A stretch of 64,000 bases of DNA from a virus (IMGVR_UViG_2675903591_000001:5429-69428), one strand, 5' to 3'. Shown: positions 19,341 to 26,608, counted from the first letter of the stretch. The notes: generated by a model not told the origin, from the sequence alone. Numbers and translations: made by a program.

Positions 19341-20564
19341 ATGAGCGCCGTCCAAGTCCAAGACACCCCAGCGAAGGAAACCATCACCTGCCATTGGTGT
19401 TCTTGCGAGTTCCACCACCTGAAATCGCATCTGCAGGGCAAATGCACCGGCATTCCTGAAGAGCATAAGAGCAGTACCGTAGAAGACATCATCGCGGCAT
19501 ACACCACTCAGTTCCCCAACGCCCCAACGATTTCACCTTTGGCCATTAAGACAATTCAGGCTCGTAAGCAGGAAATTCAAGCTGCTGAGAGCAAAGCACC
19601 GACCGTTAAGGTTGGCTACATCGGCACTGAGGAATACAAGGTGGAGATGGTGGCCGCACACGAGCTGCTTGGCGTAGATCTGAAAAATCTATCCACCGCG
19701 CTAAACCAGCCCCTCAAGGTATCAGTGAACGTAAACACGCCATTCCCAGAGTTTGTACCGGTGGCCAAAGACAACTACGTATACGGTGACTTTGAGCTTA
19801 TCAAAGATGTTCTGATGATGATGGAGCTGGGCATTCCAGGCTATCTGTGGGGTCATGCAGGCACTGGCAAAACCTCTCTACCAACTCAGCTTTGCGCCCT
19901 GATGAATCGACCGGTCATCCGCTCTCAGCACACCGCTTCGACGGAAGAAGCTCATATCTCCGGGCAGATTCTGGCACGAGACGGTTCAACTTATTTCGAG
20001 CCTGGCTTGTTGGCACTGGCAATGCGTCACGGCTGGGTATATCTGGCAGATGAATACGACTTTGCATTCCCTCAAATTTTGGGCATCTACCAGCCAGTGC
20101 TGGAGGGTGAAGGTCTTGTCATCAAAGAAGCTACCCCAGAGTGGCGCCGCGTTGCACCGCACAAACGGTTTGCTTTCATCGCCACCGGCAACACAAACGG
20201 ATCTGGAGACGAAACAGGACTGTATCAGGGTACAAACCTGCAGAACGCCGCCAACTTCTCTCGCTTTGGAATTGTCTCGAAAGTTCATTACATGAGCCAG
20301 CGCGCCGAAACCAACATGCTGGTCAAAGCAGGCGCTACAGATGATTTCGCTCAGAAGCTGGTGCGCTTCGCAACTCTTATTCGTGAAGGCTACGAAACCA
20401 GCGTGATCTCACAACCAATTGGGCCGCGCGAGCTGCTGCTGTCTCTTCAGGTTGGTATTCGCCGCGGTGACATTCCAGCTGGTCTGCAACGCGCATTCAT
20501 CAACAAACTCCCTTCAGCGTCTGCCCAGGCAGCGCGCGAGATCGCGGATCGCATTTTCGTATGA
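19341..20564 (+). CDS. AAA+ ATPase, MoxR/CobS-like, partner of the vWA protein
   Basis: Walker A GHAGTGKTS and Walker B VYLADEYD; conserved CobS/CobT-like pairing. Confidence 0.8.
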   Translation: MSAVQVQDTPAKETITCHWCSCEFHHLKSHLQGKCTGIPEEHKSSTVEDIIAAYTTQFPNAPTISPLAIKTIQARKQEIQAAESKAPTVKVGYIGTEEYKVEMVAAHELLGVDLKNLSTALNQPLKVSVNVNTPFPEFVPVAKDNYVYGDFELIKDVLMMMELGIPGYLWGHAGTGKTSLPTQLCALMNRPVIRSQHTASTEEAHISGQILARDGSTYFEPGLLALAMRHGWVYLADEYDFAFPQILGIYQPVLEGEGLVIKEATPEWRRVAPHKRFAFIATGNTNGSGDETGLYQGTNLQNAANFSRFGIVSKVHYMSQRAETNMLVKAGATDDFAQKLVRFATLIREGYETSVISQPIGPRELLLSLQVGIRRGDIPAGLQRAFINKLPSASAQAAREIADRIFV

Positions 20565-20764
20565 GCAAAGGCTGCTTTGGTTCACTGATAGCAGCCTCTG
20601 AAACTAATCCCGTTTGCATGGCATGTTCCAGCAAGCGGGATTGCTTCGTTAAGGCACAAGAGACCGCTATCAAGATTTACGGGAAGTTCGCTGGCTTCCC
20701 AAACGACAAAATAAAAAAGACAAGTAAGGCAAAAGCACATGAAAGCATTAATGGTACGAACTGA
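20561..20764 (+). CDS. small Cys-containing protein (67 aa)
   Basis: ATGA-coupled; overlaps the dnaE N-fragment start by 26 nt. Confidence 0.35.
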   Translation: MSKGCFGSLIAASETNPVCMACSSKRDCFVKAQETAIKIYGKFAGFPNDKIKKTSKAKAHESINGTN

Positions 20765-23096
20765 CTTCTCCCTGGGTGAGTCGTCTTTGAAGGCAGAGCG
20801 CGCCGTAGAGAAAGCCCGCGAAATGGGTTACTCGTCGGTGATCTCCGCTGACAGCATGAATCTGGCATCCGTAATCCCCTTGCAGATGGCGGCTGGTGAC
20901 GATGTCGCGGTCATTTGTGGTGTAAAGCTGAACCTGGTTGACGATCCTACATACGAGCACCGCGCTCGACTCGCTAAGGAGTCTAAAGGATGTATGGAAT
21001 CATTAACGCGCGCGCGCAGCTACAGCTTCACGGCGCTCATTAAGAACGAGCAAGGTTATGTCGATCTCTGCGAACTGATGACGCTGGCAAACACACGCGA
21101 GCAGTTTTATCACGTTCCCCGTCTTGAGCTGGCGCAACTGCTGGCGACGTTCGCCAAAGGCAACATCATCCTGCTGACCTCGGACATGGGAAGCGTATTC
21201 CAGCGCCCGGACTTCGCGAAGATTATCGCCCAGCTGGTTCACGCTGGCGGCCGTGAGAACTTTTACTGCGCCGTTTATCCGATTGCTACCCCACTCTATG
21301 ACCAGCTGAATAGCAAAGCGCTCAAGGTGGCCAGTGCTCTTAAGATCGAGCCGGTGGCGTTCTACCCTGCTTACTACGAGGCTCCCACTGACGCTGACAT
21401 CAAAGACATCGCGCATATGGTGCTGAACAACATCAAAATCGACCAGCTGCACCGTATGCGAATCCCGTATCAACGTGACAATGGCGTTAATGATCGCCGC
21501 CACTTACTCCAGCTATTGAAGGAGTTTGCGGTGCGGATGGGTGTCAACGTCACGCCAGCAATGGTCTCAACAACTCAGGACGCGATCATTGATGCGTGTA
21601 CATGGCGCTGGCACCCGCTGGAACCCGCTTTACCAACCATGGCAGATGATGAGCCAGCCACATTGCGTAAACTCGCTGTAGAGGGGCTGAGGAAGCGTCT
21701 TAGCACCAAAGAGTTCGGCTATGCACCACCAGCCACAATGCACCGTGATTATGTTGAGCGCCTGAAGTACGAACTTGATGTTTTAACCCGCCTTGGCTTC
21801 TGCGGCTACTTCCTCATGGTTCACGACCTGATGAATTACGCTCGCGGCGCCGGGATTCCTGTTGGGCCTGGCCGTGGTTCATCCGCTGGCTCTCTTGTCG
21901 CCTGGTGCGTGGGGATTACAAACGTAGACCCTATTCGCCATGGATTGCTGTTCGAACGTTTCATTAACCCTGAACGTCTCGACTTGCCCGATGCTGATCT
22001 GGACTTTAGCCAGGCACGTCGTCACGAGGTCATTGAGTACCTGGGTGAGCGTTACGGGGAGGATTACGTCGCTGGCATTCCCAACTTCACATACCTCGGT
22101 GCAGCTTCAGCACTGCGCGACACCGCACGTATCTTTGGCGTGGATTCAGCGGATATGGCGGTATCGAAAGACCTGCGCTTTGTCGATGACGATTCACTGT
22201 CACTCGAAGAGATGCGCGAAGAGCTTTCCAGCCTGGACAAATACGCAGCCAAATACCCGGACGCATTTAACGCGGCCACCAAATTGCAAAGTCTCATGCG
22301 CGGATTCGGCCGCCACGCAGCTGGCATGATCGTAGCCGGTGTGAAACTGACAGAGCGCACACCGGTCGAGCGACGCGGGGATGCGCGTGTAATCGCTTTT
22401 GACAAGCGTTACTGCGAATCCATGGGATTGATTAAGTTGGACGTGCTAGGTCTCGCTACGCTCGATCTGCTGGCTTATGCGCAGCAATACGTGAAAGAAG
22501 CCACGGGAAGCGTGATTGATCTCGATGCAATTCCACTAACTGACAAAAAGGTTCTTGATGGCTTTGCCGGTGGCCACACCCAGGGCGTGTTCCAGCTTGA
22601 ATCAGGATCGATGCGTAAGCTGCTAAAGGATCTGGGCGGCGGCATTGATCCGATGAGCTTTGAAACAGTTGTCGCCACGACAGCATTATTCCGACCTGGC
22701 CCGATCGAATCTGGAATGTTGGACAGCTACGTTTCGGTGGCCAAAGGCTTCAAAGAGGCTGATTCCATCCACCAGGTACTCGATGAGCTTACCTCTGAGA
22801 CCAATGGGGTAATTCTCTTTCAGGAACAAACCATGAAGGCCACGCAGCTGCTGGCCGGCTTCACGCTCGCGGAAGCTGATGGCGTCCGAAAAGCGATCGG
22901 TAAAAAAGACATGGAGAAGATGAAGAAGGTCGGTAACCAGTTTATCGAGCAAGCCCAGGCCGGCTGGATAGAGGTGAAGCTGGAAGACGGAACCACTCGC
23001 CAGTTCCACCGCGCGGAGCACTTCAAATGTGCCGATGGCAAGCTGCGAACCATCGAAGAAGCAATGCACGATGGCGCCGACGTTCTGGGCATCTAA
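20739..23096 (+). CDS. dnaE: DNA polymerase III alpha subunit (DnaE), N-terminal fragment: PHP, palm, thumb and most of the fingers
   Basis: PHP motifs at the N-terminus; palm GRGSSAGSLVAWCVGIT ... DPI; DLPDADLDF catalytic aspartates; finger region ending RKAIGKK. Confidence 0.8.
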   Translation: MKALMVRTDFSLGESSLKAERAVEKAREMGYSSVISADSMNLASVIPLQMAAGDDVAVICGVKLNLVDDPTYEHRARLAKESKGCMESLTRARSYSFTALIKNEQGYVDLCELMTLANTREQFYHVPRLELAQLLATFAKGNIILLTSDMGSVFQRPDFAKIIAQLVHAGGRENFYCAVYPIATPLYDQLNSKALKVASALKIEPVAFYPAYYEAPTDADIKDIAHMVLNNIKIDQLHRMRIPYQRDNGVNDRRHLLQLLKEFAVRMGVNVTPAMVSTTQDAIIDACTWRWHPLEPALPTMADDEPATLRKLAVEGLRKRLSTKEFGYAPPATMHRDYVERLKYELDVLTRLGFCGYFLMVHDLMNYARGAGIPVGPGRGSSAGSLVAWCVGITNVDPIRHGLLFERFINPERLDLPDADLDFSQARRHEVIEYLGERYGEDYVAGIPNFTYLGAASALRDTARIFGVDSADMAVSKDLRFVDDDSLSLEEMREELSSLDKYAAKYPDAFNAATKLQSLMRGFGRHAAGMIVAGVKLTERTPVERRGDARVIAFDKRYCESMGLIKLDVLGLATLDLLAYAQQYVKEATGSVIDLDAIPLTDKKVLDGFAGGHTQGVFQLESGSMRKLLKDLGGGIDPMSFETVVATTALFRPGPIESGMLDSYVSVAKGFKEADSIHQVLDELTSETNGVILFQEQTMKATQLLAGFTLAEADGVRKAIGKKDMEKMKKVGNQFIEQAQAGWIEVKLEDGTTRQFHRAEHFKCADGKLRTIEEAMHDGADVLGI

Positions 23097-23168
23097 CCGT
23101 TTAACGCAGCTTGGATGCCGTATCTGAGCTGCGAAAATTAATACATGGATTGTGATTAAGAGGCACCA

Positions 23169-24338
23169 ATGAAAGTTTTAGAGACGATTTCCACGAAGCC
23201 CGGACTAAGCGACAGCAAAGCAAAAGAGATCTGGGAAGCGTTTGAGAAAAACGGGGCGTATCAGTTCAACAAATCTCACTCAGTGGCTTACTCGCTGATT
23301 AGCTATCAGTCGATGTTCATGAAGACGCACTACCCTGCCCAATTCTTCGCAGCAGCGCTGACTATTTTGGGTGATGACAAGCATCAGGGGCTGGTTAAAG
23401 ACGCTCTGAGCTTTGGCATTCGCATCTTGCCACCAGATGTAAATATCTCGACCAACCGCATTGAGATCCGCCAGATGGAAGACGGTACGCAAGTGCTGTA
23501 TGCGCCCTTCTCAGCTGTTAAAGGATGCTCAGAGAATGGATGCCAGGCGATCATGCGCGCCCGAGCGAAAGTGGGAGGCCATTTCACCGACATCATGCAG
23601 TTTGAAGAGGCGGTTGAGAAGCGCGCCTGCAACAGTCGTGTTCGTGATTCTCTCGATCGTGTCGGTGCATTTGCCAGCATCATCCCCGGCAGCTTACCCG
23701 CAACTTCCGAAGAGCGTCGCCGTGACCAGGCGGAGCTGATGGGTAATCTGGTGATCGATGCGGTAAAAGCGACACGCCGGTTTGAAATGAACCTGAAACG
23801 CCAGGCTGAAGTAAACGTGCTGATGACGAATATGGCCGCTGAAATGGGGCTGGGTGATGAGCTTATCCGTCCGAGCATCGGCATCAAACCACGCTTGATG
23901 ATCATCCTCGACAACGCCAACGGTAACGATGGAAAAACCGGCTACTTCATGGAGAACGGTTATGACGACTTCAAGGCGAAGTTGCTGGTTGCCGGTGATC
24001 TGAAGATGGGCGATTTGTACGTTACCGGCGTTTGCAAGAAGGTGAAGGACAAAGAAAAGGACTACACCAAAGACGAGTTAGGCCAGTTTAACGAGTTCAT
24101 CAAAGCAGAGGTGGCTTTGGTACGACCAACGTACATTCTTACGTGCGGCGCCAAGTCCACCAGCCTGTTTAACAACAAATCGAAGCCATCAGATCTTGTT
24201 GGCCGCAAAGAGTATCTGCCGGAGTTGGATGTCACGGTATTCTATGGCTTTAATCCCAACATTCTCCACTTCCGCCCAGAAGAAGGCGAAAAGCTGGAGT
24301 TGATCCTCGCTGACGTTGCCGAGGCAGTAAATTCGTGA
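23169..24338 (+). CDS. dnaE: DNA polymerase III alpha subunit, C-terminal fragment (end of fingers, HhH, divergent tail)
   Basis: YQFNKSHSVAYSLISYQSMFMKTHYPAQFFAAALT and ILPPDVNIS match the DnaE region after the fingers; has its own SD (AAGAGG) and ATG. Confidence 0.7.
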   Translation: MKVLETISTKPGLSDSKAKEIWEAFEKNGAYQFNKSHSVAYSLISYQSMFMKTHYPAQFFAAALTILGDDKHQGLVKDALSFGIRILPPDVNISTNRIEIRQMEDGTQVLYAPFSAVKGCSENGCQAIMRARAKVGGHFTDIMQFEEAVEKRACNSRVRDSLDRVGAFASIIPGSLPATSEERRRDQAELMGNLVIDAVKATRRFEMNLKRQAEVNVLMTNMAAEMGLGDELIRPSIGIKPRLMIILDNANGNDGKTGYFMENGYDDFKAKLLVAGDLKMGDLYVTGVCKKVKDKEKDYTKDELGQFNEFIKAEVALVRPTYILTCGAKSTSLFNNKSKPSDLVGRKEYLPELDVTVFYGFNPNILHFRPEEGEKLELILADVAEAVNS

Positions 24339-24592
24339 GCAAGCCTCACATCCTCTATAGGGCAGACTTGCGCTGCCCCAACTGCAAATCAGCGCCTGAA
24401 GTCATTCGAATGACGGATGAGAATACCGAGCAATTTTGGTGGGAAGAGAACGGCACGACATATCCCGTTTTATTGCGCCATACAGAGCTGGCAGCACGTC
24501 ATTGCACATTCAGAACTGAGATCTACCACCTGACCCTTCCGCTGGCTATTGGCGTTTGGAAAGAACAAATTAAAAACAGGAATAAACGATAA
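24335..24592 (+). CDS. hypothetical small protein (85 aa, GTG start overlapping the dnaE-C stop)
   Basis: ORF with a CxxC pair. Confidence 0.4.
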   Translation: MSKPHILYRADLRCPNCKSAPEVIRMTDENTEQFWWEENGTTYPVLLRHTELAARHCTFRTEIYHLTLPLAIGVWKEQIKNRNKR

Positions 24593-24969
24593 TGACTACC
24601 GAATTGGCACCGGCGATGATTGAGAAAGCGCGCGAAGCAATTACCCGCTCTAACTTCTGGGAGTTTATCGACCGCACTATGACACTTGAGCTGGCCGTGG
24701 CCAGCGCCAAATACGATGGCGAACGCGCCCCTAATCGTTTACGCAAGGCGGCCAAGGCAATGCTCAACGTCGTTTACGATCCTCTTATGCGTCGATTCGT
24801 TGACGGCATCAGTAGTTCGAGCAAAGCGCTGGAAAAGCTAGATGAGCTAAAGGCGTACCGCGACAGTCTGGTGACAAAGGTAGCCAATGAGTTTACTGAG
24901 GCCGAAAAGTTTGGCGACGTTGGCGAGTACCGCCGTCAAAGAGCTGCGAGAATGATGCAAGCAGCGTAA
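24592..24969 (+). CDS. hypothetical protein (125 aa)
   Basis: ATGA-coupled helical protein. Confidence 0.45.
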   Translation: MTTELAPAMIEKAREAITRSNFWEFIDRTMTLELAVASAKYDGERAPNRLRKAAKAMLNVVYDPLMRRFVDGISSSSKALEKLDELKAYRDSLVTKVANEFTEAEKFGDVGEYRRQRAARMMQAA

Positions 24970-24996: not shown

Positions 24997-25797
24997 TTAT
25001 TTAACTCTTAGGAAAGTTGTGCTCAATACATTTTTATATCTATTCAAGTCGTTTTGTATTCCTGCTTCATTTACAATTAATCCTGCAGGGTCATATACAA
25101 GGCAAATCAAATGCCCACAATCTGGATGTTTCGTATACTTCATAATATCCTCTATTAACTGTTTTCCAATCTCTTTATCATTTAGACCCGCCCTCGTCAT
25201 TTTGCATTCGATTACGATTTTTTCTTTATGTAAAACAAAATCGATGCGGGCGTTCCGATTAAATGTTGAAGAAACAGCGTCCTCACATCTAATATCATCG
25301 AATTCAATTTTCAGAAGAGCATGGAGTAGGTCTTGCACATCATATTCATCATTCATCAACAATGGTGGTCTTGAAGCATATCTGATTTTCATAGCATCCA
25401 CGACCAGACCGAAACGCTCACATATATTTATGGCTTTTGATAGCGAGTCAACATTAGCAGACCCAAACAATTCGCCTCTATATTTTCTATAGTCAGATGT
25501 TATTTTATTAATTAACCCAACCGTATTTCTAATTATATCATCGCGAACAACTTTATAGTCTAGGTCTCTATCGTAAGATTTCATATCGGTTTTTTTAATG
25601 ACCGCCGAGATTTCCTTCCACTCACTAACAAAATCATGATTTGAAGGATATAAAGCCCTTATAGCTACCTCAATTTCATCAAAGGTCCTTTGGGTAACGC
25701 GGCTTCCAAAACAAATATCCTCTTTATTTTTAATGATAATTTTCCGCGAAATCAACTCATTTATTGCCCGCACTTTGGCGTCAGGATTCAGTTCCAT
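24997..25797 (-). CDS. putative effector of the cyclase operon: an uncharacterised N-terminal domain and a C-terminal PD-(D/E)xK nuclease-like domain
   Basis: C-terminal IDFVLHKEKIVIECK gives the D-(x11)-E-x-K catalytic pattern after an acidic helix; start set at MELNPD (ATG 25795..25797), which has a GAGGT SD. The track's longer ORF would read through the intergenic hairpin. Confidence 0.6.
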   Translation of the reverse strand: MELNPDAKVRAINELISRKIIIKNKEDICFGSRVTQRTFDEIEVAIRALYPSNHDFVSEWKEISAVIKKTDMKSYDRDLDYKVVRDDIIRNTVGLINKITSDYRKYRGELFGSANVDSLSKAINICERFGLVVDAMKIRYASRPPLLMNDEYDVQDLLHALLKIEFDDIRCEDAVSSTFNRNARIDFVLHKEKIVIECKMTRAGLNDKEIGKQLIEDIMKYTKHPDCGHLICLVYDPAGLIVNEAGIQNDLNRYKNVLSTTFLRVK

Positions 25798-25810
25798 TAT
25801 AACCTCTAAA

Positions 25811-25833
25811 AATAGGGGCTTCCGCCCCTTTTG
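25811..25833 (-). terminator. GGGGC-GGAA-GCCCC hairpin plus TATTTTT between the cyclase and effector genes (candidate attenuator or partial terminator)
   Basis: lies just after the cyclase TAA stop and just before the effector SD. Confidence 0.35.
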
Positions 25834-25834
25834 T

Positions 25835-26608
25835 TTATCCGACGTTGATCCGATAACCTTGAACGCCACCTCTGCCTATGTCACTTAATACAAATGACAA
25901 CCTGCCACCTTTTGAGGAAGGCCAAGCTGCTCTCAAATTGCTATCAATAAGAATAACATTGTTGCCACCTGAAAGTTTAGTTGCTCTGAACACGCATTCT
26001 CCATATGCTTTAGCATGTCTAGCTCCTTCAATTCCAGAAAGGCTTACCAGCGCCTTGCTAAGTGCCAATCCAATACCAATCTTCAAGGGCGGAAGGTCGT
26101 ATCTATTTGCTAAGGCGGTGTTTACGATATCTAAAGTATTATTTAAGCAATCTTTAGCCGCATTGTGAGCATCGTAAATGTACTGTTCCGGTTTTTCTTC
26201 TTCTTTTTTGAAAAAACCAAGAACACCATCACCTAAATATTCAGTGACACCCCCTTTATATATATTTATTGTTTTCTCAAGAGCAGGCAAAAGAGCAGAG
26301 GTTTCATAAAACACACGCTGTATTCCCTCAAGCCTAATCGAATTACTGGCAGTAAGCATGTGATCTGTAGAATTGCGCATATCGGCAACAATAGCTATGA
26401 AATCGTCTACTATCGTCTCGCCTTCCATAACTATTTCATGCCCAGGTATTTGACTTGGGGCCGAGTCCATAGCACTCTTATTGAAGGCTTCGGTGCCGAC
26501 TCTACTCTCTGATATTAATTTATATCCACCATTACTCCAATGGTATTCAGCTTGATTAAGAGACCTATCAACTAAGTTAGCAATTATTGACCGCTGATCA
26601 TTATTCAT
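25835..26608 (-). CDS. class III nucleotidyl cyclase domain protein (Pycsar PycC-like or adenylate/guanylate cyclase-like), minimal size
   Basis: FIAIVADMRNST matches the F-A-D-I-x-G-F-T metal site; YLGDGVLGFF matches the I-G-D-A-Y-M second Asp motif; KIGIGLALSKALVSLSGIEGARHAKAYGECVFRATKL matches the RIGIH.G.V..G..G......Y...G..VN.ASR transition-state region; its ATG overlaps the upstream TGA (ATGA). Confidence 0.7.
   Translation of the reverse strand: MNNDQRSIIANLVDRSLNQAEYHWSNGGYKLISESRVGTEAFNKSAMDSAPSQIPGHEIVMEGETIVDDFIAIVADMRNSTDHMLTASNSIRLEGIQRVFYETSALLPALEKTINIYKGGVTEYLGDGVLGFFKKEEEKPEQYIYDAHNAAKDCLNNTLDIVNTALANRYDLPPLKIGIGLALSKALVSLSGIEGARHAKAYGECVFRATKLSGGNNVILIDSNLRAAWPSSKGGRLSFVLSDIGRGGVQGYRINVG

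Follow-up and report, generated by a model that had tools for sequence, protein, structure and literature searches.

A dnaE gene in two pieces at a probable splicing-dead split-intein stub in an SSU5/pHCM2-like phage-plasmid

Among the closest described systems are the 'fractured genes' of Dassa et al. 2009 (PMC2677866), a set that includes three dnaE loci from ocean metagenomes. In Aeromonas phage Aeh1, nrdA is split by the HNH gene mobE into 'genes in pieces' (Crona et al. 2011, PMC3045599), and the tails of the NrdA pieces are essential for activity, function being regained without RNA or protein splicing (PMC3045599). The gp43 polymerase of some T4-like phages is encoded by two genes with inserts of 2-3 kb and is presumed to assemble non-covalently (Petrov, Karam et al., summarised in PMC2677866), while the cyanobacterial split DnaE intein (Ssp/Npu; Wu et al. 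1998) interrupts a dnaE split in the fingers domain near the FNKSHS motif. Here we describe the dnaE of a 64,000-nucleotide stretch of viral DNA (IMGVR_UViG_2675903591_000001:5429-69428, referred to as the window), an SSU5/pHCM2-like phage-plasmid in which the alpha subunit of DNA polymerase III is encoded by two adjacent open reading frames (ORFs). The locus is best read as a fractured dnaE broken at a dead split-intein stub, with a polymerase that would assemble non-covalently and a stub that would act as its clasp, and we give this reading a probability of roughly 0.72.

The N-fragment of 785 amino acids (aa) occupies 20739..23096 on the plus strand and, by ORF and Pfam analysis, includes the PHP domain, palm, thumb and first part of the fingers, with the acidic polymerase motifs PDADLDF (residues 417-423) and KLDVLGL (residues 566-572). 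Its C-terminus reads ...HDGADVLGI and is followed by the TAA stop at 23094. An intergenic spacer of 72 nucleotides (nt; 23097..23168, plus strand) contains two further in-frame TAA codons (23139 and 23157), a 13-bp hairpin (CGCAGCUUGGAUG-CCG-UAUCUGAGCUGCG, 23105..23133, plus strand) without a U-run behind it, and the Shine-Dalgarno (SD) sequence AAGAGG (23158..23163, plus strand), located 5 nt ahead of the ATG at 23169. The C-fragment of 389 aa (23169..24338, plus strand) begins MKVLETISTKPGLSDSKAKEIW and carries the remaining fingers, a helix-hairpin-helix (HhH) domain (HHH_6) and a C-terminal domain resembling uracil-DNA glycosylase (UDG) from approximately 23886, with its FNKSHS motif (23265-23282, plus strand) starting at residue 33. 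A check of the ORFs reproduced exactly the two same-frame fragments, the spacer and the three stops reported in the first-pass annotation, and the SD of the C-fragment was likewise seen, while the distance from the break to FNKSHS, given there as about 25 residues, is in fact 32. Both ORF starts are multiples of 3 and the fragments therefore have a common frame. In relatives with the same split the C-fragment has its own SD and ATG and the frames are offset by +1 or +2, and the shared frame is on that comparison a coincidence of the window lineage.

Pfam matches on the N-fragment were PHP (1.2e-12), DNA_pol3_alpha (2.1e-76) and DNA_pol3_finger (2.4e-45), and on the C-fragment HHH_6 (7.9e-15), so that the domain set of a family C Pol III alpha (PHP, polymerase core, fingers, HhH) is complete and spread over two ORFs. 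A C-terminal oligonucleotide-binding (OB) fold with tau-binding region was not found, the Pfam search of the window DnaE having given no tRNA_anti/OB match; the last ~150 aa of the C-fragment (23886-24335) are instead UDG-superfamily-like (Pfam PF03167, E 0.0066) and replace the OB/tau region, and PF03167 is precomputed on many C-fragment homologues. Stand-alone C-fragments are labelled by NCBI as 'uracil-DNA glycosylase (family protein)'.

With the fractured genes of Dassa et al. the window family shares the dnaE host, collinear adjacent halves, an end resembling the N-terminal intein half (IntN) followed by a start resembling the C-terminal half (IntC), hairpins near the junction and, in relatives of the window, a free-standing endonuclease gene between the halves, an arrangement also found in the metagenomic locus L096 described below. 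The family differs, in a comparison made by description, in that its stub of ~52 aa is without splicing residues and its halves are not ligatable, in that the window either lost the endonuclease gene or never carried it, and in its occurrence in phage-plasmids of clinical Enterobacterales and Acinetobacter. The window itself thus has the collinear host gene in two ORFs and no free-standing endonuclease gene between them. Aeh1 nrdA/mobE shares an HNH gene between the halves of an essential replication-related enzyme, here in relatives only, and unique tails at the break, which are present in the window. The host enzyme is a different one, however, and the Aeh1 tails are reported as arising with the insertion and not from an intein, whereas Hint ancestry is detectable in the tails of the window family, and these tails are retained where the gene is re-fused. 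The cyanobacterial intein, to whose family the tail of the N-fragment is closest, is active and ligates the halves, lies directly before CFNKSHS, is encoded at separate loci and has no endonuclease gene. Split gp43 is likewise a two-gene phage replicative polymerase, with an insert that holds a homing endonuclease gene in one case, but belongs to family B and has no reported intein relic. As a dnaE apparently broken at a splicing-dead split-intein stub, the locus extends the known kinds of 'fractured genes' and 'genes in pieces', and no description of this arrangement was found in the searchable literature on phage-plasmids, SSU5, DnaE and HNH.

The break lies inside a lineage-specific insert of ~52 aa in the fingers domain. 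Between the GKK motif and FNKSHS there are ~54 residues in distant relatives and bacterial DnaE, which are insert-less, versus 101-109 in insert-bearing forms, and in continuous relatives the same tail and head are joined in-frame as an insert of 47, 51 or 55 aa depending on the clade. The tail comprises I744-I785 of the N-fragment (IEVKLEDGTTRQFHRAEHFKCADGKLRTIEEAMHDGADVLGI, 22968..23093, plus strand) and the head M1-P11 of the C-fragment (MKVLETISTKP, 23169..23201, plus strand). Two profiles, A2 (tail and head without DnaE flank) and A3 (tail only), were compared with 177,635 Protein Data Bank (PDB) sequences, and the only natural proteins matched at E<0.1 were DnaE inteins: 7qil (1e-4), Npu (2e-3 to 9e-3) and Ssp (0.03-0.08) for A2, and 7qil (7.9e-5) and Npu (1.5e-3 to 2.3e-3) for A3, Ssp reaching 1-1.5 with the latter. 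De novo TIM-barrel and ankyrin designs in the PDB were also matched by A2 and A3 and were disregarded as repeat-summed matches to a helix-strand motif. The tail aligns to Npu IntN residues 60-101 of 102 without a gap over ~42 residues, and since the alignment runs to residue 101/102 the N-fragment stops where IntN stops. Against 1.84e9 representative proteins the tail-only profile retrieved N-fragments of the family together with four short proteins (P0212, P0220, P0224 and P0225; E 7e-5 to 7.5e-4) in which TxxH is intact and Pfam Intein_splicing is matched at 8e-6 to 4e-3. One of the four, P0225, has a C-terminal segment that matched PDB DnaE inteins at 1.6e-8.

Structure prediction pointed in the same direction. 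In an AlphaFold2 (AF2) model of a natural fusion with its flanking helices the predicted local distance difference test (pLDDT) was >90 across the insert, and the predicted order was four short strands followed by a helix, then a loop where the gene is split, the long head strand (70-77) and a fingers helix. With the modelled insert as query the top 6/6 Foldseek matches were DnaE inteins, Npu IntN (4qfq) superposing over 40 columns at 1.9 A (25% identity), and both structure-comparison programs used placed DnaE inteins first. No residue required for splicing was seen in the insert: block A, a Cys/Ser at the first position (W followed by IEV is found), blocks F/G, the His-Asn pair and a C/S/T +1 nucleophile are all missing, while across the family the block-B His column is E/A/K and the Thr column (T69) is an invariant His. 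Tail and head therefore probably form, on sequence and modelled fold, the catalytically dead remainder of a DnaE-type split intein, a stub consisting of the last ~42 IntN residues (the C-terminal half with the block-B region) and the first ~10 IntC residues, the head strand being predicted to complete the tail sheet in the place of the first IntC strand. The stub keeps the IntN and IntC parts that flank the canonical endonuclease-insertion and split site. The first-pass annotation had found no intein blocks, and in so far as this denied a functional intein it holds; as a statement that the fragment ends are unrelated to inteins it fails on the gap-free alignment of the tail to the block-B half of IntN and on the predicted likeness of fold. 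The tail thus does align to intein blocks, which overturns the unrelatedness to inteins and leaves the absence of splicing as it was.

The nearest real intein, reached through a profile of bridging fragments, was L096, a metagenomic contig of 1618 nt (JGI 3300045424). Its order is a dnaE N-extein ending '...FSEYGFNR', an IntN (CVTKDN...VYEIELDNGITLRTTLDHKFMCSNGLYHTIQEIFDNDLEIL... to a stop codon), a LAGLIDADG ORF of 366 aa and an IntC (MKICKIKSIKHLGMQKTYNLTMASEQHNYAI...FVISRN, with S following). The L096 IntC begins MKICKIKSIKHLG and resembles C-fragment heads of the window family (MKIKSLNILNDG, MAKIKSCKPLSDG and MKVLETISTKPG). In both L096 and L097 the free-standing LAGLIDADG ORF starts within 3-5 nt after IntN and the intein is inserted between FN(K/R) and SHS, three residues off the cyanobacterial site. 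Both loci thus look like active examples of the fractured dnaE that Dassa et al. 2009 described.

An alternative to intein ancestry is that tail and head are novel sequence left by an endonuclease break, as in Aeh1 NrdA, their likeness to inteins being due to chance or to convergence on a small beta-rich fold. Pfam intein models did not match the tail alone or the continuous insert in scans at E up to 10, the E-values of the profile matches are moderate, the insert site is unlike the known DnaE intein sites and Aeh1 nrdA/mobE shows that tails may arise with an insertion. This explanation is nevertheless unlikely, because two independent libraries returned DnaE-type inteins alone as natural matches at E<0.1, the 42-residue alignment is gap-free and ends at the IntN end, and DnaE inteins ranked first in both structure-comparison programs, with the endonuclease of relatives at the canonical intein position. 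The tail resembles a cyanobacterial-type IntN in sequence and predicted fold; an insertion directly before (C)FNKSHS was not found.

In relatives the spacer position is occupied by homing endonuclease genes. A NUMOD4-HNH_3 gene of 231 aa lies between fragments of 787 and 389 aa in a Klebsiella-type locus (L008, annotated copy L014), an HNH gene of 176 aa between fragments of 761 and 388 aa in a tailings-metagenome relative at 39% identity (L013), and a NUMOD4 gene of 191 aa between fragments of 785 and 421 aa in Acinetobacter (L015), while L005/L006 retain a decayed 63-aa endonuclease remnant in the gap. The endonucleases of L008/L014, L013 and L015 are 40-43% identical to one another, a divergence similar to that of their host genes. 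A second architecture, HTH/NUMOD3-HNH_3, occupies the same gap in E. coli, Enterobacter, Cronobacter and metagenomic loci (L016, L022, L033, L098 and L099). Among PLSDB plasmids approximately 815 have this dnaE segment at >=60% identity; the type 1 endonuclease was counted in ~242 enterobacterial and 97 Acinetobacter plasmids and type 2 in ~25. Split alleles without an endonuclease have spacers of 67-73 nt of two unrelated sequence types. The left part of the AT-rich type is common with the sequence directly upstream of the type 2 endonuclease gene, and the window spacer is of the GC-rich type and matches no endonuclease region. No endonuclease homologue was found in the window, the three endonucleases giving nothing below E 0.4 by tblastn. 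A hairpin of 11-15 bp was present in 4/4 endonuclease-less spacers examined (window, L009, L011 and L012; z = -5.3 in L012), the hairpins being of two unrelated sequence types, without a U-run and leaving the SD unsequestered. The first-pass annotation had viewed tail and head as possible remnants of an excised element, and the link to a mobile element is borne out by the HNH genes that fill this gap in relatives; the idea that the split created them in this lineage fails, as continuous relatives carry the same insert.

The same split into 785 and 389 aa, with identical coordinates and a near-identical spacer, was found in two independent complete plasmids, of Cronobacter sp. JZ38 from Saudi Arabia (97.5% nt identity) and Enterobacter sp. 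CP102 from Colombia (95.8%), which supports the earlier view that the gene is truly in two pieces. The two closest plasmids (L001 and L002) were used as partners of the window for the ratio of non-synonymous to synonymous substitution rates (dN/dS). Against L001 the N-fragment core had 35 synonymous and 6 non-synonymous differences (dN/dS 0.05) and the C-fragment 50 and 4 (0.02); against L002 the respective counts were 86 and 8 (0.026) and 50 and 7 (0.035). By these substitution patterns both dnaE halves are under purifying selection. Stand-alone C-fragment proteins of 385-421 aa were retrieved from 5.8e9 proteins at 99% down to 33% identity, including a 218-member Acinetobacter baumannii cluster, and all begin M-K/A-I/V at one alignment position. 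Stand-alone N-fragments of 756-792 aa terminate directly after the tail, and an N-fragment search returned tail-ending proteins of 784-792 aa interleaved at all identity levels with continuous proteins of 1168-1210 aa. N- and C-fragments that occur as separate proteins and share the break residue extend down to ~35% identity, Acinetobacter included. Judged from these comparisons, the split in the window is neither an assembly error nor a recent pseudogene, and the suggestion in the first-pass annotation that the enzyme may be inactive is left without support by a dN/dS of 0.02-0.05 on both halves and a split that persists to ~35% identity.

The PLSDB/RefSeq tables list no coding sequence (CDS) over either dnaE fragment in L001 and L002, and the C-fragment is likewise unlisted in L014. 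The entries missing in L001 and L002 are probably explained by the locus having been called a pseudogene on account of its in-frame stops.

Approximately 378 plasmids and 6 phage records match at ~75% nt identity, and those examined, as well as the top listed rows, have a single continuous dnaE of 1168-1172 aa. When N-fragment cores were placed in a neighbour-joining (NJ) tree with insert-less forms as the root, the deep insert-bearing branches were all split and the continuous forms fell in at least 3 derived clades, each with its own junction peptide; the split would therefore be, with moderate support from this tree, ancestral for the insert-bearing family and the continuous forms would be secondary re-fusions. 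The E. coli form of 1168 aa resembles the Klebsiella endonuclease-bearing allele minus the tail end, the endonuclease gene and the head start, as by an in-frame deletion. A related continuous ORF had been proposed as a sign of assembly error or recent pseudogenisation; such ORFs do exist at 75% nt identity, yet they appear to be derived re-fusions and hence give no sign of an error here. P0056 and P0060 were 100% identical at residues 1-645 and 826-1060 and 31-77% identical across ~660-815, a pattern that is read as junction-centred cassette exchange and would fit endonuclease-driven co-conversion. The junction was the global identity minimum in 3/4 comparisons with continuous relatives, and junction dN was ~3x core dN.

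In the proposed mechanism the two adjacent ORFs of the fractured dnaE would probably be co-transcribed and each translated on its own. This is the simplest reading because a scan of the 72-nt spacer found no promoter-like or terminator-like site and the SD of the C-fragment is strong. As the palm acidic motifs are on the N-fragment and FNKSHS, HhH and the UDG-like domain on the C-fragment, a working polymerase would require both. The halves may assemble non-covalently by packing of the split fingers helices, with beta-strand complementation between tail and head as a clasp, that is, the association step of a split intein minus the splicing. Split-intein halves reportedly associate first through disordered IntN and IntC regions (Shah et al. 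2013, summarised in PMC11766414), and the stub may correspond to these regions. The gap between the stub halves is the usual place of intein endonuclease domains and natural split sites, and in the window lineage the 72-nt spacer with its hairpin, SD and ATG is all that is present there. An AF2 model of the fused window products had a pLDDT of 88.5 and a predicted template modelling score (pTM) of 0.79, with the head strand (788-795) beside the tail strands and helix and a dip in confidence at the artificial junction alone. Aeh1 NrdA is the closest functional precedent, with tails at an HNH-endonuclease break that are essential without splicing. Assembly through tail and head, which the first-pass annotation had raised as one possibility, is the best-supported mechanism, albeit one reached by inference.

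If the halves instead acted apart, the C-fragment would be a UDG-like/HhH DNA-binding protein and the N-fragment a PHP exonuclease or a crippled polymerase, as the source annotations and the UDG-like C-terminal domain might suggest. Such separate functions are quite improbable, given that the break lies between two packed fingers helices and parts FNKSHS from the palm, that the genes are adjacent and collinear in every lineage, that repeated re-fusions give full-length DnaE, and that both halves are equally strongly constrained.

Several points weigh against the reading as a fractured dnaE with an intein-derived clasp. Both the cyanobacterial DnaE intein and the L096 intein are inserted ~30 residues downstream of the stub; decay in situ is therefore not the whole story, and an ectopic endonuclease insertion with intein flanks must be assumed. 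The stub would descend from an intein at a new site, or else from an endonuclease gene that was inserted ectopically together with parts of its intein flanks. An active intein at the exact site of the stub was found neither with the tail profile among 1.84e9 representatives, nor in 80 IMG/VR loci, nor among 5.8e9 proteins searched with the intein-fragment profile. When the window and L009 spacers were aligned locally to four endonuclease regions, the scores stayed inside the shuffle distribution and no remnant was recognisable. The C-fragment head is too short for a statistical test, and the ancestral state drawn from the NJ tree is exposed to the same recombination that is seen in P0056/P0060. 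The fused AF2 monomer is no measure of inter-chain binding, and the proposed non-covalent assembly and the putative role of the stub as clasp are both drawn from sequence, modelling and analogy.

Three further explanations are each very improbable. A single polypeptide could be made by recoding across the spacer, either by stop read-through or by ribosomal bypass as in T4 gene 60. Bypassing in T4 gene 60 is associated with a homing-endonuclease cassette, the window ORFs are in one frame and a stable hairpin follows the stop; against this stand the three in-frame stops, the absence of a matching pair of take-off and landing codons, relatives whose ORFs stand in a +1/+2 relation with gaps of 67-73 nt or filled by an endonuclease gene, and a strong SD and ATG with a conserved MK[IV] start throughout. 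Tail and head could be a very small active split intein that joins the halves by protein trans-splicing, in keeping with a tail homologous to and co-terminal with IntN, a head like the start of IntC and an endonuclease position that fits intein architecture; however, the stub measures 42 + ~10 aa where known split inteins have no fewer than 88 + 35 aa, it is devoid of all the splicing residues listed above, and it is encoded in-frame in continuous relatives without splice junction residues. A non-functional locus resulting from an assembly error or recent pseudogenisation of a continuous dnaE would suit the continuous genes of the ~75%-identity plasmid and phage relatives and the CDS missing from the PLSDB gene tables of the two closest plasmids, but is contradicted by the identical split in two independent complete plasmids, by the low post-split dN/dS on both halves and by the same break with its own SD and ATG down to 33% identity, the deepest branches all being split.

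Beyond the fractured dnaE with a non-covalent clasp, we advance a wider interpretation more tentatively, at slightly less than even odds. A split intein would have been domesticated after losing all its splicing chemistry, its association half, which corresponds to the C-terminal portion of IntN with the first strand of IntC, being selected as the clasp of a two-subunit replicative polymerase, and the gap would serve as a landing pad for unrelated HNH genes. The family would then hold a whole decay series, from an active fractured dnaE (L096-like) to a dead stub with an endonuclease, to loss of the endonuclease as in the window, and to in-frame re-fusion with a permanent Hint-derived insert.

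The element has CobT-like and AAA genes upstream of dnaE, and gp32-like, 5'-3' exonuclease and RecA-like genes lie downstream in relatives. An ORF of 67 aa (20561-20764) overlaps the dnaE start and one of 85 aa (24335-24592) overlaps the dnaE stop, both without a Pfam match. These are followed by a DUF7740 gene (24592-24969), as in relatives, and on the minus strand by an ORF of 290 aa with a DpnII/MboI-type restriction endonuclease domain (24997-25869, E 1.5e-40). Similarity to the two closest plasmids ends at ~24338/9, where L002 has an adenylate/guanylate cyclase gene, and the region directly downstream of dnaE is therefore variable cargo. Deletion chimeras with breakpoints at or near the junction were observed among relatives (P0122, P0146, P0024, P0010 and L007/P0019), including a dnaE N-part fused within the tail to a RecA-like protein, a C-fragment with a gp32-like protein and an endonuclease with a truncated C-fragment. 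These chimeras suggest that the endonuclease site may be a rearrangement hotspot. The RecA-like gene of Acinetobacter phage-plasmids at 8550-9266 of L005/L006 has an Intein_splicing domain, and bona fide inteins therefore circulate in this phage-plasmid family.

Fission of the gene for an essential enzyme is regarded as difficult to survive, and intermediate stages in the rise and decay of inteins are seldom observed. The family described here provides hundreds of sequenced, cultivable cases in phage-plasmids of Klebsiella, E. coli, Enterobacter, Cronobacter and Acinetobacter, with all states coexisting, although annotation as a pseudogene or under the 'uracil-DNA glycosylase' label seems to mask what is apparently a functional polymerase. 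It makes directly testable the questions of whether a dead stub can replace splicing by association, how homing endonucleases bring about the exchange of cassettes and how split genes are re-fused, and the stub could supply small non-splicing heterodimerisation tags.

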